From positions 1 to 28,647 of the IMG/VR virus record IMGVR_UViG_3300032277_000060: DNA of 28,647 bases; one strand, 5' to 3'. The first letter of the stretch is position 1. The number at the start of each line of letters is the position of its first letter. The notes beneath the pieces were generated by a model. It made no database searches, was not told where the DNA came from, and saw only the letters and a program-made list of their open reading frames with translations. Of this stretch, positions 1 through 18,708 are shown piece after piece. Both the position numbers and the translations under genes were made by a program. Source of the stretch: a virus. Its lineage: Duplodnaviria > Caudoviricetes.

Positions 1-175
1 CCACTGTCAATTCTGCTTCACCTTTGTCAATACTTCCAGCACTAAGATTCACAAACAAACATGGAAATAAGTCTGCATTCATCTTCTTTACATCCATTTC
101 ATCAATTGGCCCGATTACAGTGCTGTGAATCTGTGTGTTTTTCGCTCCATACGTTTCAAATGCTTCCAGTAATTT
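1..175. repeat. Terminal direct repeat (copy 1), marking a circular assembly
   Basis: Matches 28473-28647 at 172/175 nt (differences 128 a/g, 140 t/c, 143 c/a). Confidence 0.97.
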
Positions 176-208
176 ATATACTGTGGTTTCACTTTGATTT
201 GCTTCCAT
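1..208 (-). CDS. 5' part of a 158-aa putative tail terminator/completion protein that wraps across the contig join and continues at 28472-28204
   Basis: ATG at 208, 1 nt after the upstream stop. MEANQSETTVYKLLEAFETYGAKNTQIHSTVIGPIDEMDVKKMNADLFP runs in frame into the 28204..28569 ORF. Function inferred from size and position. Confidence 0.75.
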   Translation of the reverse strand, partial: MEANQSETTVYKLLEAFETYGAKNTQIHSTVIGPIDEMDVKKMNADLFPCLFVNLSAGSIDKGEAELTV

Positions 209-209
209 A

Positions 210-913
210 TTACTTGATTATGTCTTTATTATTCTTAGATATAGATAAGTCTAATTCGTAACACAAGAAAGTAAATGCTTGTTCAATTTTAAGCTCTGTA
301 ACGGCTTCAATTTTTAATATGTCTCCACCAGCCAGATGATATATTGAAGCGAACCAACCCCATTTATTTGCCATTGATGAACCTACCTCTCCACCGCCTC
401 CAAAGATTGCACTGAATCTTTCATAAAGGTCAGACCTATATTCAAAAAAAAAGCGAGTAAAGAGAAAACTTTGTCCATTTTCAACTCATTGAATATCTTT
501 CTGTTTTCACTTCCAGTGTATGGTGCTATCTGATAGAAGTCTTTTGATTCGTGTGTGACCTTTCTGTATAGTATAGAGAGGATTTGAAGCAAGTTTGCAT
601 CAGAATCAACACAAGCTGTCTCAAGGTCTGCATACTCTCCCACAGTAAGCTCTGAGAGGTTTGGATGTATTCCGTATTTTTCTCCTTTCAATTCTATAAT
701 TGGAAAAAACTCAAATTCTGTCTGACTTGGATCTTCTAATTCCTCCAGTAAAGAGTTTACAGTTTCCATGCTTTCAATAGTCATACTCTTAACTGTTTTC
801 TGTGTTATGTCACAGAGTATTGCTACACGCTTAACCACATCATCTGTCTTGGATAGTTTAATCCATTTCTTAACTGTGATATCTGCAATTGATGTTGGTA
901 CTGTTATCTTCAT
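210..913 (-). CDS. Predicted -1 frameshift-extended tail assembly chaperone (gpGT-like, about 234 aa)
   Basis: Slippery GCT TTT TTT TTG (T9 run, 444-452). The -1 frame is open (FEYRSDLYERFSAIFGGGGEVGSSMANKWGWFASIYHLAGGDILKIEAVTELKIEQAFTFLCYELD...) to TAA at 210-212, filling the gap to the next gene. Confidence 0.7.
383..913 (-). CDS. Putative tail assembly chaperone (gpG-like), 176 aa
   Basis: ORF with an A-rich leader and a slippery site about 20 codons before its stop; first gene of the tail cluster. Confidence 0.65.
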   Translation of the reverse strand: MKITVPTSIADITVKKWIKLSKTDDVVKRVAILCDITQKTVKSMTIESMETVNSLLEELEDPSQTEFEFFPIIELKGEKYGIHPNLSELTVGEYADLETACVDSDANLLQILSILYRKVTHESKDFYQIAPYTGSENRKIFNELKMDKVFSLLAFFLNIGLTFMKDSVQSLEAVER

Positions 914-2906: not shown

Positions 2907-3390
2907 TTTTAGTACGTTTTAGAGCTTTGAAAAGAGTTGTTTTGCTTATACCAGTATCTTCAGACATAGTTTTGAAAGAATGGCCATGCTCATAATAGAT
3001 TTCTGTTACTGTCTTATCAAAATATGGCATATCTGAAAGAGTAGAGTTGATGAAGTCAATCTTTTCTTCATCTTTAATCTTCTTTTCAATATCAGAATCA
3101 AACCACAGCAGAATATCTTGCTTCGCTTCTCTGTGTCTCTCAGCTGGTTTTCTGTATGTGTAATGATATGGTGATGTGGTGGAGTTGTATTGGTTCATCA
3201 TCATCCTTGCCAACCAATATCTCAACTGCTTCTTCTTAATCAGTTCCTCAATCTTGCTCTGATCACTCTCTAAAATACTTAATATCACAATGTGACATAA
3301 TTCCTCACAATCAATCAAACTTTTTTTGGCAATAGTACATGCCATTTTTTTTATAGCATCGTAATTTTTGGATATGTAGCTTCTAACCAC
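2860..3390 (-). CDS. ECF/sigma-70-like RNA polymerase sigma factor (putative late-gene activator)
   Basis: Region-2-like DCEELCHIVILSIL...YWLARMMMN and region-4-like HTH SFKTMSEDTGISKTTLFKALKR; ECF-sized; upstream of the terminase genes. Confidence 0.7.
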   Translation of the reverse strand: MVRSYISKNYDAIKKMACTIAKKSLIDCEELCHIVILSILESDQSKIEELIKKKQLRYWLARMMMNQYNSTTSPYHYTYRKPAERHREAKQDILLWFDSDIEKKIKDEEKIDFINSTLSDMPYFDKTVTEIYYEHGHSFKTMSEDTGISKTTLFKALKRTKNEIKEKAKQRTWRHD

Positions 3391-3395
3391 AACCC

Positions 3396-3403
3396 CAAAT
3401 ATA
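3396..3403 (-). promoter_or_regulatory. Bacteroidota-type -7 promoter box TATATTTG
   Basis: Matches TAnnTTTG; lies in the only gap of this gene run, 5 nt before the GTG start. Confidence 0.6.
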
Positions 3404-3422
3404 AGAAAACAATATTTGTCTC

Positions 3423-3836
3423 CTAAATTTCTTGTAATATGGCTATTGCTCTCGCTTCAAATGAGGCCGCCATATCCCTTAACTCTTGCACTGAGTACTT
3501 GCGTATCTGATTAGACATGAAAACGACTGTATCAGCCTTCCCTGAGCCATACAGAGCATCTATCTTCTTGCCGAACTGATAAGAATGCCCTCCATTACTC
3601 ATATTGCATCCTTTACACTGAGCAGCTGCATTGATTAATCCGTTTTCTGGTTCATACAACCATCTTACTGATAACTTACTTCTGGTTTGAAAGTGACCAC
3701 AATCAACTTCATTCCACATCTTGCGCTTGTCACAAGTAATACAATTAATCATTCCATACTTATCTGCACATGATAACCTCACAAATCTGCTGAATGCCTT
3801 ATCACATGCATTTTTGGCTTTGCTTCTTTCAGTCAT
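3423..3836 (-). CDS. ninG: NinG/Rap-like recombination endonuclease
   Basis: FSRFVR, CITC, DCGHFQTR and QCKGCN motifs. Confidence 0.88.
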   Translation of the reverse strand: MTERSKAKNACDKAFSRFVRLSCADKYGMINCITCDKRKMWNEVDCGHFQTRSKLSVRWLYEPENGLINAAAQCKGCNMSNGGHSYQFGKKIDALYGSGKADTVVFMSNQIRKYSVQELRDMAASFEARAIAILQEI

Positions 3837-4303
3837 ATGAATACATCATCTGTGATATTAATTGAACAGTGCTCTCCAGACATTATTGCTTCAGATATGG
3901 CTTTGTAGATCCTAAAATAAGCAAATGTACTCTTGCCTATAAAACCAGATTCTTTTGTGTTGTTGTTCTCTTGTGTATCTCCAACCAATAAACATCCAGA
4001 AGTGTCTTCATTCGTGTTTCCACAGTGAATCAAAATATCTGTAAAATTTGGCACATCCAAGAGTTCAATCATACCATTGTGAATGTCTGCAAATCTATAT
4101 TGGTATTTGTCATGCAACCTTCCATGTGTTTTTAATCCAAGAGTGTATTCACCAGCTGGAATGCATGTCTCATGTTTTACTTTTACTTCTCTTGGTTCAT
4201 CTTCAAGAGTGTAGCACATAAATTCTGGATCTGATGTGATATCATACAATAGTCCATTTGTTGAATTTGTGCTGCTGTTTGTTCTTATTAGTTTAAGTTT
4301 CAT
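3833..4303 (-). CDS. DUF5675-like protein (possible L,D-transpeptidase-fold lysin)
   Basis: YTLED, TCIPAGEY, ILIHCGN and DTSGCLLVG motifs. Confidence 0.8.
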   Translation of the reverse strand: MKLKLIRTNSSTNSTNGLLYDITSDPEFMCYTLEDEPREVKVKHETCIPAGEYTLGLKTHGRLHDKYQYRFADIHNGMIELLDVPNFTDILIHCGNTNEDTSGCLLVGDTQENNNTKESGFIGKSTFAYFRIYKAISEAIMSGEHCSINITDDVFI

Positions 4304-4361
4304 TCTGTTGTGTTAATTTTCTTGTGTCAAAATATCAAATTCGTTTTCTTCTTCATCCATT

Positions 4362-5003
4362 TTATAAAATACTTAGTTGATTTGTATTGCTTTGTTTGAT
4401 AATTCCACACGCTGTTTCAAGTATTGTTCTGCCAGCTTCGTAGTCAACTAAGTTTCGAGCTATTTTTTGGTGATCTTGTTTTCCTTTATATTGTCTAAAG
4501 TTATAATCGTGAAATTTTCCTAAGGCGGTTACTTTATCTATTGTCCTTCCCATATCTGGACTTTTGCGAGAGCTTAAATTGTTAGGTAAATTAAAGTTTG
4601 TCCAATATAAATGGCGATGCCTTTTTTTTGCTGGTATTAATGGCTCGTAATAAGGAATTACATTCTCAACTACATATTTACCAGTATAAAATGCATTTAA
4701 AAATATTATTTCTTGATAAAGTTTCATATCTGGAAATTTCATTTTTCGAGTTGTTTTCATAGAAATTTGAATCCTACTATGTGTAGGGCAAGGAGGAGAG
4801 GACCAAATAAAGTCAAACTCTTTGTAGTGATCCAATAAATATTGGTGAGCATCCGCTACAATCACTTTGTCATTAGGGAATCGTTCTTGATATAGTCGCG
4901 CGAGCTCCTCATCCCACTCAACAGCTGTGACCTCAATATCTGTTACTTCGTCCCACTTATAGCGGTTGCCTCCTAAACAAGCATATAAATTTAATATCTT
5001 CAT
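4362..5003 (-). CDS. Short DNA (cytosine-5) methyltransferase
   Basis: Motif I LNLYACLGG, catalytic SPPC (IV), VENV (VI), R (VIII) and C-terminal RNLV (X). Confidence 0.88.
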   Translation of the reverse strand: MKILNLYACLGGNRYKWDEVTDIEVTAVEWDEELARLYQERFPNDKVIVADAHQYLLDHYKEFDFIWSSPPCPTHSRIQISMKTTRKMKFPDMKLYQEIIFLNAFYTGKYVVENVIPYYEPLIPAKKRHRHLYWTNFNLPNNLSSRKSPDMGRTIDKVTALGKFHDYNFRQYKGKQDHQKIARNLVDYEAGRTILETACGIIKQSNTNQLSIL

Positions 5004-5593
5004 TCTGGTGTATTTGGATGGTGAATATGTTTCCAGCGACCTCTGAAATCTGTATCTGATTTTAAATCAAGATCCTTCACTAATTGCTTCATGATGTTTT
5101 TCTGTTCTTCAGACAATGGTTCTGGTTCTATCTTTTTAGTCTCATGGTATTTATTCTCCATCATGATTGATCTTTCATCTGCATATTTTAGAAATGCCTC
5201 TCTCAGCTCTGGCAATTTTAGACGTTCAAACATATTGCCGAAATAACCAGCTTTGAATCTATCCATGACAATTTTCCATTCCTCTAATTTATACGCTGGA
5301 AATTCATTCAGTAAAACAGATACTGCATGTTGTATTTCTTCTTGCGTTCTGAGAGTTTTGTTCATCTCCAGATAATCAAGCATGTCTTTGGTGATGGCAT
5401 ATAAAGCTGCAAACGTTGTCACTTCATCACATTTCATTGCAGTCCGGACATTAGTGCCTTGATGCCATGCCTCAACCGGATTAAGAGTTGCGAGTTTGTT
5501 CAAGATGATCAAGCAGCTTTGATTTGTCGAATCCTTGAACAGCTGCATTCTGTTTTCTGTTGTTTTTAATTGCGAAGATTCCCTGATATCCAT
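5000..5593 (-). CDS. Hypothetical replication-associated protein (helicase-loader position)
   Basis: ORF overlapping the 3' end of the initiator gene; start could be 5548. Function inferred from position only. Confidence 0.6.
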   Translation of the reverse strand: MDIRESSQLKTTENRMQLFKDSTNQSCLIILNKLATLNPVEAWHQGTNVRTAMKCDEVTTFAALYAITKDMLDYLEMNKTLRTQEEIQHAVSVLLNEFPAYKLEEWKIVMDRFKAGYFGNMFERLKLPELREAFLKYADERSIMMENKYHETKKIEPEPLSEEQKNIMKQLVKDLDLKSDTDFRGRWKHIHHPNTPE

Positions 5594-6224
5594 TTGCTAT
5601 TGAGTTTTGAATCATTTTTATTGCTGTATTTACATCTCCACCGCTTTCATCTTGCAATTTCTTGAGAGCAGCTTGTTCTCCAATCTTTGTGTACTTTTTT
5701 ATTTTACGATTGGATCGGTCTTGTTTCCATAGTTTCCATATTTTTTTAAATTCCTCATTTTCGTATGGATATACTATATGTGTCTTTATCTGTTTACTAT
5801 CTGTATTAACTATCTGGTATTGGTGTGATGTTTTCTTAACATCGTTCTTCTGTTTTTTATACTTCGATGTCTTGATTTCTGCACTTGCATGTTCAGATTT
5901 CTGGAATTGGTAGAATTGCTGGACTTTTTCAGTAATTGTGTACCATTTTGTTCTATCCCATCTCGCACGATTATGAACAGCTGAAATGATAGCACCTTCT
6001 TTTTCAAGATTAGTTAAGATCCTTCTAATCTGGTTATCTTTCCAAAATGGAAATATTGCCCTGAGAGCTGATGCGCTGTTCCAAGTCCATGTGTGACCAT
6101 CAATCTCATTCTTTTGATTGAGCTTGTTTTTATACACCCAGAATGCAAGGTGGTGGAGCATGATTGCCCCATCTACACCATACATTTGAGCTGCTTCTGA
6201 ATTGAAGCAAAGGTCACGCTTCAC
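5481..6224 (-). CDS. Phage replication initiator / replisome organizer
   Basis: N-terminal winged HTH (YGVDGAIMLHHLAFW...DGHTWTWNS...DRTKWY), low-complexity linker, and a C-terminal DnaD-like helical domain (SIANGYQGIF). Confidence 0.8.
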   Translation of the reverse strand: MKRDLCFNSEAAQMYGVDGAIMLHHLAFWVYKNKLNQKNEIDGHTWTWNSASALRAIFPFWKDNQIRRILTNLEKEGAIISAVHNRARWDRTKWYTITEKVQQFYQFQKSEHASAEIKTSKYKKQKNDVKKTSHQYQIVNTDSKQIKTHIVYPYENEEFKKIWKLWKQDRSNRKIKKYTKIGEQAALKKLQDESGGDVNTAIKMIQNSIANGYQGIFAIKNNRKQNAAVQGFDKSKLLDHLEQTRNS

Positions 6225-6445
6225 TTTATGTTCTCATTATGATACAGAACCTCAGACATTAACTCTTGAGCTGTTGTATCACATTGTTTCAATATTGTTT
6301 GAGAGTGTTTCAATAATGGCATTGGATTCTTTTGCACCCAACTGTTTACTGTGTTCGTTGAAACTTTCAAAGCACTGGCCATTTTCGCTTGAGATCCATA
6401 CATCTTAACTATATAAGATTTGAATCCGTTTTTGTTGTGTTTCAT
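6221..6445 (-). CDS. Small Cro-like HTH protein
   Basis: YGSQAKMASALKVSTNTVNSW helix-turn-helix pattern. Confidence 0.75.
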   Translation of the reverse strand: MKHNKNGFKSYIVKMYGSQAKMASALKVSTNTVNSWVQKNPMPLLKHSQTILKQCDTTAQELMSEVLYHNENIK

Positions 6446-6846
6446 TAGTTTAAATTATCACGTTCTATTAATAAAATACGAGCTAAAATTCCAATCTGTT
6501 CCAAATATTCATCATACGTTTCTTCTTTGCATGATCCAACTATCTGAACAGCTGTCTGAATTGCCCAAGAATTTTCAATATTCTTCTGAGTAGTTTGTGG
6601 TTTTGGTGCTCCATTAAATGCTGTTGGATCATTCTTAGTCACTTTTAGAGTATCTCCAAAGTTTGATGATCTGGTGACCTCATAGAATACCATGTCACCA
6701 ATTTCATAAGGTGGTTCAGCTGTTTTAGCATTGCACTGTCCAGTTTGCTCATCTTCAAACTGTATCTCAAAGGCATACATTGTATCACCTCTCTTAGTTT
6801 GCCACGTTCCGTTTGCTTGTAAAGCAGTAATTTTTGAATTTTTCAT
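6445..6846 (-). CDS. Putative single-stranded DNA-binding (OB-fold-like) protein
   Basis: Beta-rich N-terminal ~70 aa with aromatic residues; lies in the replication module. Confidence 0.5.
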   Translation of the reverse strand: MKNSKITALQANGTWQTKRGDTMYAFEIQFEDEQTGQCNAKTAEPPYEIGDMVFYEVTRSSNFGDTLKVTKNDPTAFNGAPKPQTTQKNIENSWAIQTAVQIVGSCKEETYDEYLEQIGILARILLIERDNLN

Positions 6847-6876
6847 GTTATTTTCATGTTATTTTATGTTATTTTC
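6840..6876. repeat. Tandem 11-bp repeat TTTTCATGTTA (about 3.4 copies) covering a start codon
   Basis: Copies at 6840, 6851, 6862 (1-nt deletion) and a partial copy at 6872. Confidence 0.85.
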
Positions 6877-7329
6877 TTTGATTGTAAAACCAGATTTATC
6901 TTTTCTGGATTTGAAACTTATTTTTTGTGTTTTACTCTTAGATAAAACTGAACCACGTACATGTGTGAGATACCTTTCATTTTCTTGATATGATAATCTA
7001 TCAGAATAGAATTGTTTTGAATCATATCCACCACAAGCTATAAGCACAATTGCATGATATCGGCAAAATTCTCCATGTGGAAAGTCATGCCAGTATGTAA
7101 TGTCTGAAATATCATCAATATGCTCTCTATTGTGCTTGAAATGAATGAAAGATGGAGTGTATCCCCAACCAACATATTGTCCATTGACCAGAGCTGTGAT
7201 TGATTTGTTGTATTTGTGTGCCAATTCATATGCTGAGATCGTGTCAGTCGTTAAGACATTACCTCTTACATCTAAACTTTCTCCAGATAGTACAACTTCA
7301 CCGGTGAGTGGACTGATATGTGTGCTCAT
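6859..7329 (-). CDS. Hypothetical protein, 156 aa
   Basis: ORF with ATGA overlap with the upstream gene. Confidence 0.7.
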   Translation of the reverse strand: MSTHISPLTGEVVLSGESLDVRGNVLTTDTISAYELAHKYNKSITALVNGQYVGWGYTPSFIHFKHNREHIDDISDITYWHDFPHGEFCRYHAIVLIACGGYDSKQFYSDRLSYQENERYLTHVRGSVLSKSKTQKISFKSRKDKSGFTIKENNIK

Positions 7330-7568
7330 TTTAAAACGTATTGATTGAGCAGCTTCTTCAGCATCTCTGTTTTACACTCTATTTCAAACAAAGTAGATTC
7401 TATCTGAACCATTGGATTATCATATGGTGCTCCTTTGCGTTCTCTTTCATCACCAATTGCATTCAATCTGGCTTGGCATTCTAACCATTCAGCTTCATGT
7501 AAGACCATATAACCATCTTTTAAGCGACTTTTATCCACTTGCCTTGTATTGCTATCACTTTTGTTCAT
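7326..7568 (-). CDS. Hypothetical protein, 80 aa
   Basis: Coupled ORF in the early gene run. Confidence 0.7.
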   Translation of the reverse strand: MNKSDSNTRQVDKSRLKDGYMVLHEAEWLECQARLNAIGDERERKGAPYDNPMVQIESTLFEIECKTEMLKKLLNQYVLK

Positions 7569-7746
7569 TATGCTCTGTATTGCGCTTAGAATCGCTCTGA
7601 GCTGGTTCTACATGCCAATTGATAAGATACTGGATGAATTGTTGTGCGCTATTTTTTCTTGATTCTTCATATGCTCCATCTGTATTAATAGATTCAATGT
7701 AGTCCTGAAGATAAAGCGCAGCTGTTTCTGTGTTGATTTTTTTCAT
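7555..7746 (-). CDS. Hypothetical protein, 63 aa
   Basis: Coupled ORF in the early gene run. Confidence 0.7.
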   Translation of the reverse strand: MKKINTETAALYLQDYIESINTDGAYEESRKNSAQQFIQYLINWHVEPAQSDSKRNTEHNEQK

Positions 7747-7850
7747 GATTCCTCACTTATAAATTCGCAATGTTCTAAGCAATCTGGACATATGCCATAT
7801 TCAGTCATGAAGCATTCAGCTCCACAACAATCACTATATAGATTATTCAT
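7743..7850 (-). CDS. 35-aa Cys-rich zinc-finger-like microprotein (absent from the ORF track)
   Basis: MNNLYSDCCGAECFMTEYGICPDCLEHCEFISEES; overlaps both neighbours, with ATGA coupling downstream. Confidence 0.8.
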   Translation of the reverse strand: MNNLYSDCCGAECFMTEYGICPDCLEHCEFISEES

Positions 7851-8274
7851 TGTCAAAAAGGTTTAAAACTTGTTTTGATGTTATATCATCATTTGGATTT
7901 CTTCCTTCTTGTTTTAAAGCCCATTTAAGACCAGCATTCCAAGAATTTAAAAGTTCTTCAGAAGAATCAAATACAATCTTGTTTCTTTCACATGCTTTAA
8001 ATGTAAATTCTAAACTTGATAAAAGATTTTTAATCACATTACTTTGTCTTGATTCTGTTGTAAGCATTGATCCAACTGTTTCAAATAAAACCTTTGATCC
8101 AGTTAATAGTCCAACCATTGCTTCTCTTTTAAAGCTTCTACTTACTCTTTGCCTTGAACCAACTCTTTCTTGCGCAAGTGTTACAATTTTTAAAATATCT
8201 TCATTTAGATATGTTACTGTAAGCTGTGATAATTGTGATACTTTTTCGTGTATCTCTGTGTTGAAATTTGTCAT
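7843..8274 (-). CDS. Hypothetical protein, 143 aa
   Basis: ORF preceded by leader ACTAAAACAG-ATG. Confidence 0.75.
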   Translation of the reverse strand: MTNFNTEIHEKVSQLSQLTVTYLNEDILKIVTLAQERVGSRQRVSRSFKREAMVGLLTGSKVLFETVGSMLTTESRQSNVIKNLLSSLEFTFKACERNKIVFDSSEELLNSWNAGLKWALKQEGRNPNDDITSKQVLNLFDNE

Positions 8275-8838: not shown

Positions 8839-9498
8839 CTATATTATTGATTGTAATCTTTTTTTTGTAATATCAACCGCAATTTCTGAAATATCACACC
8901 CAAAATAATTTTTATTAAGTTTTTTTGCCACAGCTAATGTTGTTCCACTTCCACAAAATGGATCGAAAATAACATCATTTTCTGTTGCAGCAATATTGAT
9001 AATATTTTCAAGTACTTTTTCTGGGATTTGATTTGAATATTGTTCTTTTTCTTTACTCACATTTTTCACAAGATTAATATTCCACCAGTCATACAATTTT
9101 GCTCCCTTGCTTCCATTCTCCATCAATTTTTGCACTCGTTTATCATTTGGATTTTTATATGGTTGATATGCTTTCTTGAAATCTGGTTTACAATTGAAGA
9201 ATGCAATGCTTCTGTGCTGTTTTCCCATGTTGCTATTGTACACCCATTGCACCACCTTATCTGGAACACCCATATGAGGAACAATGTACTTGATAATATC
9301 CTCTATGTAATGAATAACAACAAATTTGAATCCTTTGAAGTGTGCAAACATCTCAAGATAATCTGCTTTACTTATTTTGTCGTTGTAGCTGTCATATTTC
9401 CATCCAACATTGTAAGGTGGATCTGTGATAATAAGAGTGGTTTCTTTATCAAAATTATTTATGACCTTTCTAAAATCTATATTTTGAACGTTTTTCAT
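8839..9498 (-). CDS. DNA N6-adenine/N4-cytosine methyltransferase, beta class
   Basis: Catalytic TDPPY precedes the SAM-binding FDPFCGSGTT. Confidence 0.93.
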   Translation of the reverse strand: MKNVQNIDFRKVINNFDKETTLIITDPPYNVGWKYDSYNDKISKADYLEMFAHFKGFKFVVIHYIEDIIKYIVPHMGVPDKVVQWVYNSNMGKQHRSIAFFNCKPDFKKAYQPYKNPNDKRVQKLMENGSKGAKLYDWWNINLVKNVSKEKEQYSNQIPEKVLENIINIAATENDVIFDPFCGSGTTLAVAKKLNKNYFGCDISEIAVDITKKRLQSII

Positions 9499-12111: not shown

Positions 12112-12275
12112 TATTTCTTTTTAGGTTCTAATGCTACAATCCTTGCATCAAGTTCGTTGAGCTTTATAATGATTTTTCCAAGTACATCAGACAACATTTC
12201 TTCTGTTGTAATTTGGTCTTGTTCTTCAATAGACGTAAATTCTACAAACTCTTGTGGTTTCTCCCAATCTTTCAT
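12111..12275 (-). CDS. 54-aa coiled-coil protein, possible fibre chaperone (absent from the ORF track)
   Basis: MKDWEKPQEFVEFTSIEEQDQITTEEMLSDVLGKIIIKLNELDARIVALEPKKK; TAATG overlaps at both ends. Confidence 0.75.
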   Translation of the reverse strand: MKDWEKPQEFVEFTSIEEQDQITTEEMLSDVLGKIIIKLNELDARIVALEPKKK

Positions 12276-12832
12276 TATATTTTCTTTAATAATACTGTTA
12301 AACTTAGTCCCAAAAGATTAGATGTACTATCAACAGTTACTCCCATTCTATCTCCAGCTGCAAAGTTATAAGTAGCTGTGTCAAAAGTAGAGGTGTAAAC
12401 AACACCAATATCATGTGCTGCTTGAGTTACTGTGCCAAGAGGAGTTGATGAACTTACAAGTTGATTGTATGAAGTTGGTTTATGTATGCTTATGTCTGTA
12501 CTTCCACCTGAACCTTGACTTTGTGTAATTACATTTACAACCCTACAATCAATCGGAATTAATACAGTTGTAATATAATTAAAAACATTTGAATCAGTAG
12601 TGGACATTCCAAAACTTACTGCCATTTCACTTGTAGTTGAAACATACCCACCCCCATTAAAGATGAAATGGTCATCACCTCCAGCAATACCACTCAATAA
12701 ATTGGCTTTTGTAATCTGCTTATTTGTGCCATCTGGTGACATCGCAGTGTCAGCCACATCGACAATCATCACAAGATCCAGATCCGCTGCACTTGTCGCT
12801 GTTGCCAGTTGTGTTACTTTTTTTGTTGCCAT
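12275..12832 (-). CDS. Short fibre/spike protein
   Basis: N-terminal KVTQL...D..MIVD...TNKQITKANL anchor-type motif, a GGDD linker and a beta-rich head. Confidence 0.6.
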   Translation of the reverse strand: MATKKVTQLATATSAADLDLVMIVDVADTAMSPDGTNKQITKANLLSGIAGGDDHFIFNGGGYVSTTSEMAVSFGMSTTDSNVFNYITTVLIPIDCRVVNVITQSQGSGGSTDISIHKPTSYNQLVSSSTPLGTVTQAAHDIGVVYTSTFDTATYNFAAGDRMGVTVDSTSNLLGLSLTVLLKKI

Positions 12833-13473: not shown

Positions 13474-15336
13474 TTAATTATCTTCTTTTGGTTTCACGTA
13501 ATTCACTGGAGTTTTAATATTCTGAGCTGCTTTATTAGATGGTAAAAATCCTCTATTATCCATATCTCTTGGCCTCTCTGCTACCTTTGGATCATTCTTT
13601 TTTGGTGTGACTGCTTTTCTTTCATCTGGATCAAGCGCATTTATTATGGCTTGTCTTTGTTTTGCAGTGATTCTGCTATCATCTTTCTTCAGGAAAGTAA
13701 ATCTGCTCCAATAATGAGCACATGATCCACCGCCTTTGTACATATTGTATTTATCTGATTTACAGCTATTTAACCATATGTCGTATTTAGATGCTCCTTT
13801 TGGCCCCCATCCTTTATTGACTGCTGTTCTACCAGCTTTGTAGATATTTTCCTTAGTATAAAACTTTGCAGCTCCAACCATTTTGACACAAAAATCTCTG
13901 CTTTTGTATTTCATCTGGTTTATCTTCAATGGAGCATATTGATACCTAATTTTAAAGAGTGGATTGTCTTGCTCTTTTGATTGATCACTTGGATTTGGAA
14001 TTACTGAAGCTAAATTCACTCCATTTATCATTCCATCAAGTCTATCTTCATCATCATAATCCACTTCACGCTCATCTATCACTTCATATCCTTCTGGAGC
14101 ATCCTCACCAAGTGCAATGAGAGCTTCAGCAGTCGCTTCTAATTTATCAGCTGATACAGACTTCATTTCTTCTTTTGTTGGCTCTACAACCTCCGTAGTG
14201 TCATCTTCAATATTTATGAAGTTAGCTGGTTTAGATGGAATAAAAAATAAATCAAGATTGATTGCATTTGCAACAAAAACTTCTTCCAATCCCTTCAGCA
14301 AAATATCTTGAAATTCCTCTACAACTGTATTATGGAATAGACTGTATGAATCATTTAATTCATCAGCATTAGAACCCCAAGAATTTCCACCACCTCTGAC
14401 TCCAAATAGCAGTGGTGATGTCACTCTATGACCTGAGAGCACTTTGTTAGTTATCTCAGTGCTTAGGTAGGTGTACATATCATCAGATCCATTGCTTGAA
14501 ATTGGTTCAATCTTTGGAGCTGTATCTGGCCCATCATTAAACGTAATTAATAGCTTTCCAGCATTGTTACTACCTGAGAATTTCTCATATACTTTGCGTT
14601 CTATATCTGCTCTCTCTTGATCTGTTGGAATACCATTAGAAAAACTCAACATCATGCTGGGCATTAGAGAATTTTTAATGTTGTTGAGATGGAAACTTTG
14701 AACCTCGTGATCCAGTTCTATATATCCAGTTGAACCAACGTAATCTGGCAACCCATAATAATGAAAAGATGGAGCATATCTCTTTATCTGTAAAACTGTG
14801 GATGCTGTTGTTCTGTCCTCACTTGAAAAAGACTTCAATACATTTGGTTTTACTCTATCATTTGACCTTGCCCAAGAATTTTTGTAATACCACTCATGTA
14901 TCTTTCCTTCACTGTCTGCAACACCAGCTCTTAACGTATGCACTGGCAAGTGTTTCATCTGAGCAACTGAAGTTCTTGCTTTATTCCAGATTGTATTCAC
15001 ATAACACTGGCCATAAAGTTTGAGATCAATAGCTAATTTCTTGAGCAAATCATCATCACTGCTATTCAATAGAGATTGAAGTCTCAACCACTGCTCTTTA
15101 TTACCATCTGAATCATCTCTTTCAACCGCATCCAATCCTTTGCCGTATATCATAGCTCCAACACCATTCACAATTGCTGAATGTATTGAAGATCCAAGAT
15201 ACAAGCTCTCAAGATAATCACCATAGCAATCATCAGAGCCATATGATATCCAATTCTTTCCTTGTACTTCTTCAAATTGTGGAACGTCATGCACTGGCAT
15301 TCCCATTACTGAGAACTCGCTTTTATTATTCTTCAT
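13474..15336 (-). CDS. Portal protein with a C-terminal MuF-like extension
   Basis: Portal-like ~370 aa (WISYG, HSAIVNG, DLKLYGQCY, FSGSNNAG, HRVTSPLLFG), an acidic linker, then SRDFC...KGGGSCAHYW. Confidence 0.88.
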   Translation of the reverse strand: MKNNKSEFSVMGMPVHDVPQFEEVQGKNWISYGSDDCYGDYLESLYLGSSIHSAIVNGVGAMIYGKGLDAVERDDSDGNKEQWLRLQSLLNSSDDDLLKKLAIDLKLYGQCYVNTIWNKARTSVAQMKHLPVHTLRAGVADSEGKIHEWYYKNSWARSNDRVKPNVLKSFSSEDRTTASTVLQIKRYAPSFHYYGLPDYVGSTGYIELDHEVQSFHLNNIKNSLMPSMMLSFSNGIPTDQERADIERKVYEKFSGSNNAGKLLITFNDGPDTAPKIEPISSNGSDDMYTYLSTEITNKVLSGHRVTSPLLFGVRGGGNSWGSNADELNDSYSLFHNTVVEEFQDILLKGLEEVFVANAINLDLFFIPSKPANFINIEDDTTEVVEPTKEEMKSVSADKLEATAEALIALGEDAPEGYEVIDEREVDYDDEDRLDGMINGVNLASVIPNPSDQSKEQDNPLFKIRYQYAPLKINQMKYKSRDFCVKMVGAAKFYTKENIYKAGRTAVNKGWGPKGASKYDIWLNSCKSDKYNMYKGGGSCAHYWSRFTFLKKDDSRITAKQRQAIINALDPDERKAVTPKKNDPKVAERPRDMDNRGFLPSNKAAQNIKTPVNYVKPKEDN

Positions 15337-18058
15337 ATGCCTTATATGTTACTGTGTCATTATATGATTCAAATCTATTGTATCCATCTTCTGTGGATGT
15401 TCTTTCAAGATGTGCCATGCATTTTCCTAATACTCGATAAAAAGTTCCAAGATAACCTCTAATCTCTACTTGGTAAAATCCTTCTAAAAAATCTGGCTGT
15501 TTTAAATTGATAATTCCAGCTGCTGGAACTTCAGTTGGAAATTCATTGATTATTACTTGGCCATGTAAACTGCGACCATCCCAACCTCCATCTGTTATTA
15601 ATGTATCCAGTGTGAATTGCTTTGAGTTGTTTGTTGATTCATCTGTTAAGGTAGGAACAAAAACCAGAGATTTTGCAAATGGATCCCAAGTTGGATCATT
15701 AGTCCACTGGCTTTCATCAACCCCATTCATAGAAACATAATCAATTGAAATAGTTTGATTTGCTCCAGAACCAAACAATCTATGTATTTGCAAGTCATGA
15801 TCAACAGCAAATGGAGTGACATATTCAAAAGAATATTCTTTGTATGATGTAGTCAGTAATTCTGTTCCTATCACAGCACTCACAGCCGTACCCAAAGAAG
15901 CTGCGATCTCAACATAGATAGCTGCTGTTGCTTTCATATTAATGGTGATGATATAGAGCTTATTTGGCTTAATCAATCCAGTCTGATATACTCCACAATT
16001 GTTTCCAGATGAATCAATCTCAAGATCTACCTGACCAAGTTTCATTACAGATTTTGAATCTGGATCTGCAAATGTTACCCACCTACCATTGGTATCCAGT
16101 TGTTTAATTGAGATGCTGTTCACCACTCCTGAAACACTATCACCATTTTGTGCTCTCACAATGTAAATTCTTGCACTATCCGATTTTGTATAAAAGTATG
16201 AAGTTCCAGTTGTGTTTATTACTTGTGAATCGCTACCAACTTGCAATTTTAAATCTCCAGTAATAGAAGCAACATCAATTTCAATTTTATAATATTTACC
16301 TATTGTTAAAATATCTTGATACACTCCAGTTGATGCTTGTGTTTCAGTTGAATCATAGACTATTGAAAGTGTGCTGTTTGGAAAAGTTACTAATTGTCCA
16401 TCTGGCTGTTGAATAGTCCAATCTTGTCCGACCTCCTTAACTGAGATACTGCTTATAGTTACAAAGTCGGTTGCTGAAGTTACTGGAGTTGCTAAATTGA
16501 AAATCCAATTATCTAATGTTCCTTGCCTTGTGTAGTAAAATGTATGCGTTCCTACACCTTGTTCGGGTAAAACTACGTACGCAGCTCCATTATAATATTT
16601 AACTGAGTTACCTGAAGTTAATGATATTGAATGTATGGTGTAGGTGACTTTATAAGATTTGTCATCTTGTGTTACACTTGTTTGAAAAACTCTACTATCA
16701 ATCCCCAAATCTGAAGATTGAACTATTTTTAGACCATTTTCTACAAATGATGCTGAATCTGGGTCGGATACAATTTCACTCCAATCCTCTCCAAGCTCTT
16801 GAACTACGATGCTGTTAATTACTGCATCTACGGCTTGGCTACTTATTCTATAAAGATATAAAGCAGTAGCAGTTGCTTCTCCGTAAAACGTTTGTACACC
16901 AGTTCCAGTTACTTCTATTGAACCACCACCAAGTATAATTTTAAACTTGTTTGTGTTTGAAGCTACATCAATAGTTACTTTGTAAGATTTACCTATTGTT
17001 AATATACCTGATTGAAGTATCCCAGTAGCACCCGAAACTCCATCCGAAACTATTTGAACTTGATCATTCGCAAAAGTTACCGTGTCCGTTCCAGCTTCAT
17101 TTGCTGTCCAATCCTCTCCGAGTTCTTTAACGGATATTGTGAAGCTTGGTACATCGTATATTTGAGCGCCATCAAAACTTAAAAACACAGAACCGTTATC
17201 TACAAAGTAAATCTCTTTTGTAGTTGTAAAATCATAATCTTGAAACAAATAACTTGCACCATCATAGAAATCACAGTTAGTTGTTCCAGTTGGTGTCGAA
17301 GTTGGTGTTATAACTAATTTATAAGACTTTGAAGAAGTAGTCGCTAAATCAATTTTAGGGCGTATAGAGCTTCCTGAAGTTCCGTCACTTGTAGAACTAT
17401 AAGAAATCCCACTAATTAAAGTGATGCTTCCCCCTCCCGCATTTACGATAGTTCCAATCGTAGGCATTAACTCACTTCCAGTATCCGTAAAGTTTGGATT
17501 TGTGACAAGGTTGGTAGCTTCCTTGACTGAGATATTTTCAAGAAACATATTACAAGCACCTGAATCTCTTTCTATTATTAATTGAGTATTTTCAACAGCT
17601 ACATAAAAAAAAGAATAACTACCATTAGCAGAAGCCGTTTGAAAAGGAGACTCTGCTGTTGGTCTTACTCTTATTGTTCCTAAAGTCCATCCAGTAATAT
17701 CAAAAGTAATTACATATGATTTGCCAATTTCAAACACTGAACTCTGATAAGCAAATTCATATGTTCCATCTGATAGACAATGCAGCTTGTTATTTGCTAT
17801 TGTAAATGATGAAGATAAACTCCAATTTACATTTGGCGTTGGAAAGTTTCCATCAGTCACAAGTTCACCACCTAATGGAACAGCACTAAAATCTCCATTC
17901 GTAATAAGCTCAGAACCTATCTCAGCAAAGTCACCATTCTCAACAAGGTCTGAACCTATATCATTAAATGATCCATTTTGAACCACGTCTTGACCAGCTC
18001 CACTGAAGTCACTTAGATTAATATCCAATACGTTTGTTCCTTTGGTGAGCTGAATCAT
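15326..18058 (-). CDS. Virion structural protein carrying six nested CBM-like (galactose-binding-like) domains
   Basis: Six (E/D/N)LVxNGxF-type openers, six K(S/Y/L)Y strands and six ISVKE-type closers; lies between tail tube and portal. Confidence 0.8.
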   Translation of the reverse strand: MIQLTKGTNVLDINLSDFSGAGQDVVQNGSFNDIGSDLVENGDFAEIGSELITNGDFSAVPLGGELVTDGNFPTPNVNWSLSSSFTIANNKLHCLSDGTYEFAYQSSVFEIGKSYVITFDITGWTLGTIRVRPTAESPFQTASANGSYSFFYVAVENTQLIIERDSGACNMFLENISVKEATNLVTNPNFTDTGSELMPTIGTIVNAGGGSITLISGISYSSTSDGTSGSSIRPKIDLATTSSKSYKLVITPTSTPTGTTNCDFYDGASYLFQDYDFTTTKEIYFVDNGSVFLSFDGAQIYDVPSFTISVKELGEDWTANEAGTDTVTFANDQVQIVSDGVSGATGILQSGILTIGKSYKVTIDVASNTNKFKIILGGGSIEVTGTGVQTFYGEATATALYLYRISSQAVDAVINSIVVQELGEDWSEIVSDPDSASFVENGLKIVQSSDLGIDSRVFQTSVTQDDKSYKVTYTIHSISLTSGNSVKYYNGAAYVVLPEQGVGTHTFYYTRQGTLDNWIFNLATPVTSATDFVTISSISVKEVGQDWTIQQPDGQLVTFPNSTLSIVYDSTETQASTGVYQDILTIGKYYKIEIDVASITGDLKLQVGSDSQVINTTGTSYFYTKSDSARIYIVRAQNGDSVSGVVNSISIKQLDTNGRWVTFADPDSKSVMKLGQVDLEIDSSGNNCGVYQTGLIKPNKLYIITINMKATAAIYVEIAASLGTAVSAVIGTELLTTSYKEYSFEYVTPFAVDHDLQIHRLFGSGANQTISIDYVSMNGVDESQWTNDPTWDPFAKSLVFVPTLTDESTNNSKQFTLDTLITDGGWDGRSLHGQVIINEFPTEVPAAGIINLKQPDFLEGFYQVEIRGYLGTFYRVLGKCMAHLERTSTEDGYNRFESYNDTVTYKAYEE

Positions 18059-18141: not shown

Positions 18142-18708
18142 CTATGATGGATTCGTCACAGTAAATGCAGCAGTTCCACCATCAACTTGATCGAATGGCC
18201 AGTTAGCAGCAGCAGCATCAGTTGAAGCTGTTATTGCTGGTGGGTATGTATTCTCTCCAGCTGTCACAGTTAGTGTATATCCTTGCATGTCTGCTCTCGC
18301 TTGACCAGTTACAAACGTTCCACCAGTTACAGTACATCCATTTTGAAGTCCAATGCAGTACACATTGTCATTCGCATCTAAGATGTATGCAAATACTCTT
18401 GTTTGAATCAACTTCTGTAATTCATCAGATGTTGATTGCTTCAAAATATTCAAAGTGACTTCCAATGCTGAATCATAAGATGCAGATCCAGCTGGTTCAT
18501 TTGTTATAGTTGTAGTCAGTGAAGCTGTATTTGGCTGCACATCATATCTGTAAACAGTTTGAGCTGTATCAATTCCATCCAATGCACCAGTATCAAAGGT
18601 CATACCACCATATCCAGCCACCTGAAAGTCACTAAAATAAATTGCCTTGATTCCACCAACTGTGTCTTTACAGTTTAATCCAATCGCAGCTGTTAAATTA
18701 CAAGCCAT
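18142..18708 (-). CDS. Putative major tail (tube) protein
   Basis: MACNLT...CKDTVGGIKAIYF and TGQARADMQGYTLTV motifs; lies between the capsid gene and a strong terminator. Confidence 0.7.
   Translation of the reverse strand: MACNLTAAIGLNCKDTVGGIKAIYFSDFQVAGYGGMTFDTGALDGIDTAQTVYRYDVQPNTASLTTTITNEPAGSASYDSALEVTLNILKQSTSDELQKLIQTRVFAYILDANDNVYCIGLQNGCTVTGGTFVTGQARADMQGYTLTVTAGENTYPPAITASTDAAAANWPFDQVDGGTAAFTVTNPS

Follow-up and report, generated by a model that had tools for sequence, protein, structure and literature searches.

Why should a phage morphogenesis gene stack several short, similar motifs at its N terminus, far from the larger segments that appear to complete them? The question is raised by a 910-residue open reading frame (ORF; 15326..18058, minus strand) in the tailed-phage record IMGVR_UViG_3300032277_000060 (Caudoviricetes), which comprises 28,647 bases, has an estimated completeness of 98%, and is called the window below. 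The ORF adjoins the portal gene on its upstream side, within a morphogenesis block of siphophage-like type that also holds terminase, protease, and tape-measure-like genes. We consider it very probable that the protein has a nested architecture, in which six domains resembling carbohydrate-binding modules (CBMs) are inserted one into another within a small host protein.

Layout of the Cassette

Each domain comprises a short start motif and a longer body that runs from a tryptophan to an end strand. The initial annotation had placed six starts at residues 22, 35, 48, 63, 181, and (in degenerate form) 194, and six body ends at residues 180, 312, 421, 542, 653, and 779. Re-reading of the sequence found both sets at these positions. 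The equality of six starts and six bodies also holds: a body profile detected exactly six bodies in the gene and none elsewhere in the window, the CBM-like module being confined to this gene within the record. If starts are written S and body ends E, the protein reads SSSSESSEEEEE, in which the sixth start is the degenerate one, and its bracket order is 1[2[3[4,5[6]]]].

The gene, a small host protein plus the six-domain nested cassette, has no Pfam or PHROG match, and all of its segments lie on the minus strand. It opens with the N-terminal part of the host protein (residues 1–21; 17996..18058), which aligns to residues 1–19 of the insert-free ortholog P0124 (P numbers denote stored homologous proteins and L numbers fetched loci). 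Start 1 (residues 22–34; 17957..17995), start 2 (residues 35–47; 17918..17956), and start 3 (residues 48–62; 17873..17917) follow, and are assigned by the bracket parse to bodies 1, 2, and 3, respectively. These starts span a 39-bp DNA repeat with copies 73–78% alike. Domain 3 is, by the same parse, host to two sibling inserts, domains 4 and 5. Domain 4 (residues 63–180; 17519..17872) is an uninterrupted leaf, predicted to be a complete CBM16/CBM4-like jelly roll, and it is missing together with its start in five-domain orthologs such as P0006. Start 5 (residues 181–193; 17480..17518) has body 5 as its predicted partner and precedes the innermost leaf, domain 6 (residues 194–312; 17123..17479), which has the degenerate start and appears to be an exchanged cassette. 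The remaining bodies come in reverse order: body 5 (residues 313–421; 16796..17122), 94% identical to a body in the terminator-hosted P0033; body 3 (residues 422–542; 16433..16795), 93% identical to a body in P0046, from another host lineage; body 2 (residues 543–653; 16100..16432); and the outermost, body 1 (residues 654–779; 15722..16099), each recognized by the body profile. The host protein then resumes (residues 780–910; 15329..15721) with a β-rich part that belongs to an unnamed phage family and is 64% identical over 111 residues to P0124.

Starts and Bodies Track Each Other across Homologs

We found 140 relatives and stored 120, including the 910-residue protein and a near copy; the start matrix and body profile were built from these. 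Dropping 16 redundant (70% identity) and 13 partial-looking sequences, and 3 without a start or end, left 88. Starts equaled body ends in 48 of the 88 when scored strictly (permutation mean 16.2, maximum 31) and in 65 when degenerate starts were allowed (permutation mean 18.4, maximum 33; 20,000 permutations in each case). All 65 are valid bracket words, and 20 non-redundant proteins share the architecture word of the 910-residue protein. A purely tandem arrangement was seen in none of the 88 and was rejected. The initial annotation had staked its proposal on the relation between the two counts, which do track each other (65/88 balanced; Spearman 0.86 for start against body numbers). Judged by eye, the 23 exceptions comprise 12 balanced proteins with missed starts, 7 truncated ones, and 4 that are off by one. 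A profile search supplied a second set, 124 new proteins that its query biased toward three-level cassettes; 85 of the 111 complete-looking members were balanced (null mean 29.6, maximum 46), as were 63 of 78 distinct closed ORFs in the fetched loci, a sample that overlaps the protein sets.

The fixed loop is one of several sites of insertion. In some homologs the bodies are interrupted at a second site and in others at a third, which follows the K-S-Y strand; the interrupting blocks are balanced in their own right, and branching is thus possible at more than one loop. Examples of these second and third sites (early hairpin or after the K-S-Y strand) are L040:5523-8111, L060:432-3182, L067:1-2679, and L013:5491-9945. 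P0027, another such protein, reaches a nesting depth of 7.

A Three-Level Ortholog Is Predicted to Fold as Nested Domains

A natural three-level cassette (L015:3937-5046, 370 residues, 52 rows), equivalent to domains 3, 5, and 6 of the 910-residue protein, gave an AlphaFold2 model with a mean predicted local distance difference test (pLDDT) score of 88.8 and a predicted template modeling (pTM) score of 0.81. All three starts were placed at pLDDT 86–90. The model was compared with solved chains (50 rows, whose ranges give the first and last aligned residues alone). Solved single domains align to the leaf over 25–28..146 (CBM16, Z 13.6) and to the middle domain over 13–15..251–253 (6 rows, 110–118 aligned residues, root-mean-square deviation [rmsd] 2.3–3.0; 8xmz, Z 13.3; 2zez, Z 12.6). 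The outer domain is matched over 1–2..370 by two rows, both meprin beta (127–128 aligned residues, rmsd 3.0–3.1, Z 12.5 and 11.9). None of the 50 rows covers 1..146 or 14..370 with a single domain at low rmsd. The ranges are those predicted by bracket order, which pairs each start with the body that the bracket logic gives it; the equivalent of start 3 meets the outer body, and that of start 5 the middle one. The start had been described as a full strand, and by DSSP it is mostly a loop-like segment. The predicted models have the galactose-binding-like jelly-roll fold of ∼120–150 residues.

The linkers point to the same order. Three residues after each start co-vary with the residues before the body tryptophan, and do so best under last-in-first-out pairing. 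Over 231 pairs from 65 proteins, the mutual information is 1.04 for this pairing, 0.64 for first-in-first-out, and 0.08 for random pairing (maximum 0.20 of 2,000); when each architecture is represented by a single protein (16 proteins, 61 pairs), the values are 0.85, 0.52, and 0.23 (maximum 0.52), in the same order. First-in-first-out pairing was rejected on the linkers together with the ranges in the ortholog model. Last-in-first-out pairing, modeled at three levels, is predicted by extrapolation for the five levels of the 910-residue protein. Degenerate starts fall at leaves in 21 of 21 cases, and an Asp or Glu in the last strand is present in 281 of 405 uninterrupted bodies versus 90 of 612 interrupted ones. 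CBM-type domains have a structural calcium site made up of the start loop and a last-strand Asp, and the contrast fits loss of that site where the loop carries an insert.

In the full-length AlphaFold2 model of the 910-residue protein (37 rows; pLDDT 61.8, pTM 0.43), residues 63–181 match the whole of CBM16-1 (Z 14.7, rmsd 2.3, 121 aligned residues). A complete CBM16 match needs a start plus a body, as seen here with domain 4, and body 1 alone (residues 654–780) matches CBM4, CBM22, and CBM29 chains only from about residue 10–19 onward, in several rows. The start motif is shared with the N terminus of 4d0q (profile E 0.0054), and whole-chain matches begin at it. Start 5 has pLDDT 63–75 in the full-length model, where body 6 is disordered. 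In two fold searches with this model, domains 4 and 1 took up the rows, and no clean row for start 5 plus body 5 emerged. Among predicted viral structures, the matches were tail proteins and unnamed ones, at low TM-scores.

The outer levels were probed with a split chain, residues 20–62 against residues 422–782. The score was 0.49 (best of three controls, 0.00), which was rated weak support and comes with no contacts. Of 157 solved complexes, 116 attain the mark that it passed, as do 2 of 215 mismatches; with a score at or below 0.60, just 18 of the 157 do so, along with both mismatches. Contacts were at least 97% the same from run to run, and the partner had pLDDT 76–78 versus 29 with an unrelated chain. 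We note that the pass may stem from likeness to solved CBMs.

Cassettes Are Shared between Unrelated Genes

The six bodies of the 910-residue protein are at most 38% identical to one another, and several are 93–100% identical to bodies in other host genes. Where the DNA is 85–100% identical to that of relatives, the limits of the block lie mostly at a start motif or an end-strand/tryptophan junction. A stretch of 395 nt (window 17106–17500, residues 187–318) extends from within start 5 as far as the body 5 tryptophan and so covers domain 6; it shows full identity to a portion of another phage's tail-terminator gene (L005, L093, and L094, two contigs as judged by length and position). Ortholog L002 has a different leaf between these anchors. 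Because the identity is bounded by conserved junction motifs, it indicates cassette exchange, and we hold recombinational exchange to be probable. Three unbalanced forms (L078:5857-7290, L107:3959-5356, and P0031) join the N terminus of one host type to the C terminus of another, and are either gene recombinants or assembly chimeras.

The Host Protein and Its Variable Insert

Insert-free orthologs of 136–139 residues stand between the same two neighbors and align to residues 1–19 and 800–910 of the 910-residue protein. The proposal that the stack is inserted into a protein of about 150 residues is therefore supported as to the insertion and was slightly high as to the size. At this locus, L079–L083 have no domains (capsid 80–82% identical), L008 has four (capsid 98% identical), L087 and L088 have five, L002 and L003 have six (capsid 99% identical but cassette protein 62%), and L084 has eight. 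The host family has 264 further relatives, none of them named, and no match to named families in PHROGs, Pfam, or Protein Data Bank (PDB) sequences, Dit and Tal included; its size and place beside the portal argue against its being a Dit or Tal baseplate protein. A head-closure role would be our guess. A distant branch of the family has the cassette at a different N-terminal position (L066:5962-7863 and L060:432-3182, versus window 15326-18058), which suggests separate insertions into one host family.

In other phages, the module also occurs in tail terminators (PHROG 347, E 2e-13; PF11367) and in tail proteins that bear LamG. At L038, L061, L064, L072, L097, L103, and L162, two to four module-bearing genes follow one another, and many of them have a LamG-type C-terminal part. 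Of 1.84 billion 50% clusters, a three-level profile matched 18,508 at E 0.001 and 1,618 at E 1e-30 or better. The cassette protein had no match among annotated phage genomes, where no cultured representative turned up, and bacterial and archaeal genomes gave one match, on a 1.3-kb contig of a Bacteroidetes metagenome-assembled genome that is too short to name the phage's host. In the ESM Atlas, the cassette matched unnamed viral clusters and one CBM_4_9 cluster (13% of members).

Observations That Weigh against the Proposed Explanation

A number of results count against the reading given above. In the full-length model, residues 1–62 fall below pLDDT 50, leaving starts 1–3 unplaced, as do most of residues 200–315, and bodies 5, 3, and 1 are reasonably folded without placed starts. 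Neither the 910-residue protein nor domain 4 alone matches Pfam CBM_4_9 (PF02018) above the cut-off; the homolog P0120 does pass (32.1 bits versus 25.9). Searches of the insert-free host gave weak, scattered hits in Pfam and PHROGs, nothing below E 0.5 for host profiles against PDB sequences, and unnamed viral clusters alone in the ESM Atlas. The balance is imperfect: P0031, P0033, P0043, and P0074 are off by one (4 of 81 non-truncated homologs), and a conserved class with unclosed starts comprises nine stored proteins (P0034–P0036, P0038, P0048, P0065, P0071, P0104, and P0210) and four loci where a stop and the next gene follow (L103:1056-5417, L097:5299-7983, L159:2068-3819, and L162:226-1977). 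Members of the class finish with a pair of stacked starts, a short stub of a body, and a tail that they have in common, with no frame continuation carrying the missing bodies seen, and the completeness filter had excluded them from the 88. The permutation nulls overstate significance because homologs are related. The linker classes were set after the data were viewed, and class-free mutual information separates the pairings less (0.42/0.38 for last-in-first-out, 0.32/0.35 for first-in-first-out, and 0.14/0.16 for the null).

The expectation that starts always equal bodies in orthologs has to be given up in view of the 65/88 count, the off-by-one forms, and the unclosed class; strict balance was accordingly rejected. 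The nested, branched stack itself draws on the homolog counts, the linker co-variation, and the three-level model, in which the proposed packing of starts against bodies appears in bracket order. The three outer pairings of the 910-residue protein (residues 1–62) are unplaced in its own model, and to that extent the initial annotation went beyond what was found. At L097, two overlapping frames (3380-5359 and 5299-7983) correspond to a single 1531-residue protein in P0034, through either a frameshift or an assembly error.

Proposed Mechanism, Function, and Alternatives

As a whole, our explanation is of a nested six-domain cassette in a small phage protein, reshuffled by recombination, that forms a variable surface arm aiding attachment to glycans; we are modestly inclined to accept it in full. 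A small phage protein, likely part of the virion, would carry six CBM4/CBM16-like jelly rolls, each insert sitting at the loop between its parent's start motif and first tryptophan. Crossovers would fall in the start motif and in the end-strand/tryptophan junction, which serve as two conserved anchors in the DNA. A double crossover in matching anchors would swap a whole leaf or sub-tree and leave the brackets balanced, mismatched crossovers would yield the rare off-by-one forms, and selection would remove most unbalanced products. The arm would be displayed on the virion, bind glycan, and help the particle to attach.

An adhesive, glycan-binding role seems reasonably likely. The fold suggests that the domains bind glycans, and the arm is probably located on the virion. 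In lactococcal phages, according to one report (PMC6669499), CBMs on neck and tail proteins bind the host. Fold, position, and this analogy together make a virion-displayed adhesion arm, varying in length and specificity by cassette exchange, our best guess. The arm had been pictured as extensible, which was not borne out for the folded state: the pTM of 0.81 for three nested domains suggests a stack that is fairly rigid rather than stretchable, and that varies in length over evolution.

The alternative that survives best, which we rate unlikely, keeps nesting and exchange and drops glycan binding; the domains would serve as a spacer or shield, offer a surface for protein binding, or be a mobile module of nearly neutral effect in tolerant virion loops. 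The bodies speak for it and against our functional proposal. Their conserved aromatics are just the tryptophan after the start and two tyrosines, the others being 20–45% conserved; no aromatic cleft residue is strongly conserved, and mean body-to-body identity is ∼26%. The fold also matches non-lectin domains such as meprin beta (Z 12.5), relatives at the same locus exist without any cassette, and the module enters many unrelated genes, up to three or four per locus. Yet CBMs head the list of fold matches, and hundreds of proteins retain intact frames and balance, which suggests selection; switching of specificity would likewise give variable surfaces.

We think it improbable that the starts complete the bodies in a swapped pairing, out of bracket order in the chain or between chains of an oligomer. 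Starts 1–3, as 39-bp repeats 73–78% alike, may be nearly interchangeable, the split-chain test gave no contacts and so does not show the order, and the unclosed-start class would need partners from elsewhere. Exchange of secondary-structure elements between domains is described for Si3 (PMC11515920), the RNA polymerase insertion discussed below. However, the 50 rows of the three-level model show bracket-order ranges alone, and the linkers are a few residues long and co-vary in bracket order.

Very improbable, in our estimate, is an ordinary tandem of bodies that fold alone, with the stacked 13-residue starts as a separate low-complexity repeat or linker. The full-length model, with folded bodies and an unplaced N-terminal stretch, would fit it, as would the surplus or missing starts of some homologs. 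Set against this are the tracking of start and body numbers across architectures, the start plus body required for a complete CBM16 match, the confident placing of three starts in the three-level model, and a last-strand Asp that is usually kept only in uninterrupted bodies. That the layout or the gene sharing is a short-read assembly artifact arising through repeated modules is extremely improbable, since a few unbalanced host chimeras (P0031, L078, and L107) and an internal duplication in P0173 are outweighed by bodies too different to collapse (≤38% identical), a letter-identical copy of the gene on a second contig (L001), and many full-length homologs with the same layout (the same architecture word in 20 non-redundant proteins); assembly collapse was rejected on the first two grounds.

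Comparison with Known Nested Proteins

Domains within domains occur in the T4 gp18 tail sheath ("Russian doll" domains), flagellin (D0–D3), and myosin X (a split PH domain). These involve mostly non-homologous domains or a single level, in a fixed architecture. A case in which homologous domains are recursively inserted is on record, the Si3 insertion of cyanobacterial RNA polymerase β′, which has eight such SBHM/HABAS domains, six levels, and branching nodes (PMC13114784; see also PMC11515920, and PMC10895346 for a crystal structure). A 2026 survey of 2.7 million domains showcases deep nesting with the six levels of cyanobacterial RNA polymerase. Si3 and the phage cassette are alike in having homologous small β domains nested in each other, with branching, as an elongated arm within a host protein. 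They are also comparable in depth (six levels, compared with five plus the host and a branch at level 3). They differ in fold and setting (a sandwich-barrel hybrid in RNA polymerase β′, compared with a CBM-like jelly roll in a morphogenesis gene). Si3 occurs in one enzyme, with 8–10 domains in six cluster representatives, whereas the phage cassette ranges from 0 to 8 domains among close phages, enters several unrelated genes, and has domains that are exchanged between phages. Si3 structures are solved, whereas the phage nesting is predicted.

CBM16-, CBM4-, CBM22-, and CBM70-type modules (2zew, 1gu3, 4xun, 4d0q, and 8xmz) have a fold like the predicted one (Z 13–15, rmsd 2.0–2.6), but the phage domains are discontinuous, share 8–18% sequence identity with them, and fall below the Pfam CBM_4_9 threshold in the 910-residue protein. 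CBM-decorated siphophage proteins (evolved Dit, the neck passage structure, and extensions of the major tail protein) (PMC6669499) resemble the cassette, an optional insert in a morphogenesis gene, in that virion structural proteins carry optional CBM-type modules in varied combinations; no report of one CBM nested in another was seen for them in the texts searched. The host here is instead an unnamed 136–139-residue protein beside the portal, without a Dit or Tal match.

The initial annotation knew of no description of the architecture. In the literature searched, which left most subscription papers outside, no paper on recursive self-insertion in CBM-like or phage proteins was found; the nesting principle itself is already known, because Si3 has been described. 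The phage cassette is real, and is a rare known architecture in a new form, with variable depth among close relatives, several insertion loops, and domain exchange between unrelated genes. The family matches Si3 in nesting depth with a different fold and presents the process in action, with 0–8 domains at one locus. These natural versions, together with base-identical shared domains, form a testable series for the origin, folding, and balance of nested proteins. Pfam and PHROGs miss the architecture while the profile matches 1,618 clusters, so that probable phage adhesion modules form a large class still lacking annotation. Protein design might also find a scaffold in a domain whose fixed loop can take in further copies of the same domain. 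More tentatively, there may be a widespread grammar of phage proteins. A single CBM-like module, with three or more insertion loops, would form branched trees of its own copies, and its two conserved DNA anchors would turn it into a recombination cassette. Whole sub-trees could then pass between unrelated phages and between unrelated structural genes, and virion arms would gain combinatorial diversity in their reach and in glycan specificity with no dedicated enzyme needed.

Neighboring Genes

The downstream neighbor of the 910-residue gene is the portal gene (13474..15336, minus strand; PF04860, PHROG 33693). Upstream is a 188-residue gene for a putative tail tube (18142..18708, minus strand; PHROG 19091, of unknown function), which is syntenic in relatives. 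A second variable structural gene of 185 residues (window 12275-12832, minus strand) has a conserved N-terminal part of 45–60 residues and a C-terminal part that differs among close relatives. The 28.6-kb record also has two DNA methyltransferase genes (window 4362-5003 and 8839-9498, minus strand), of the C5 and N6/N4 types.

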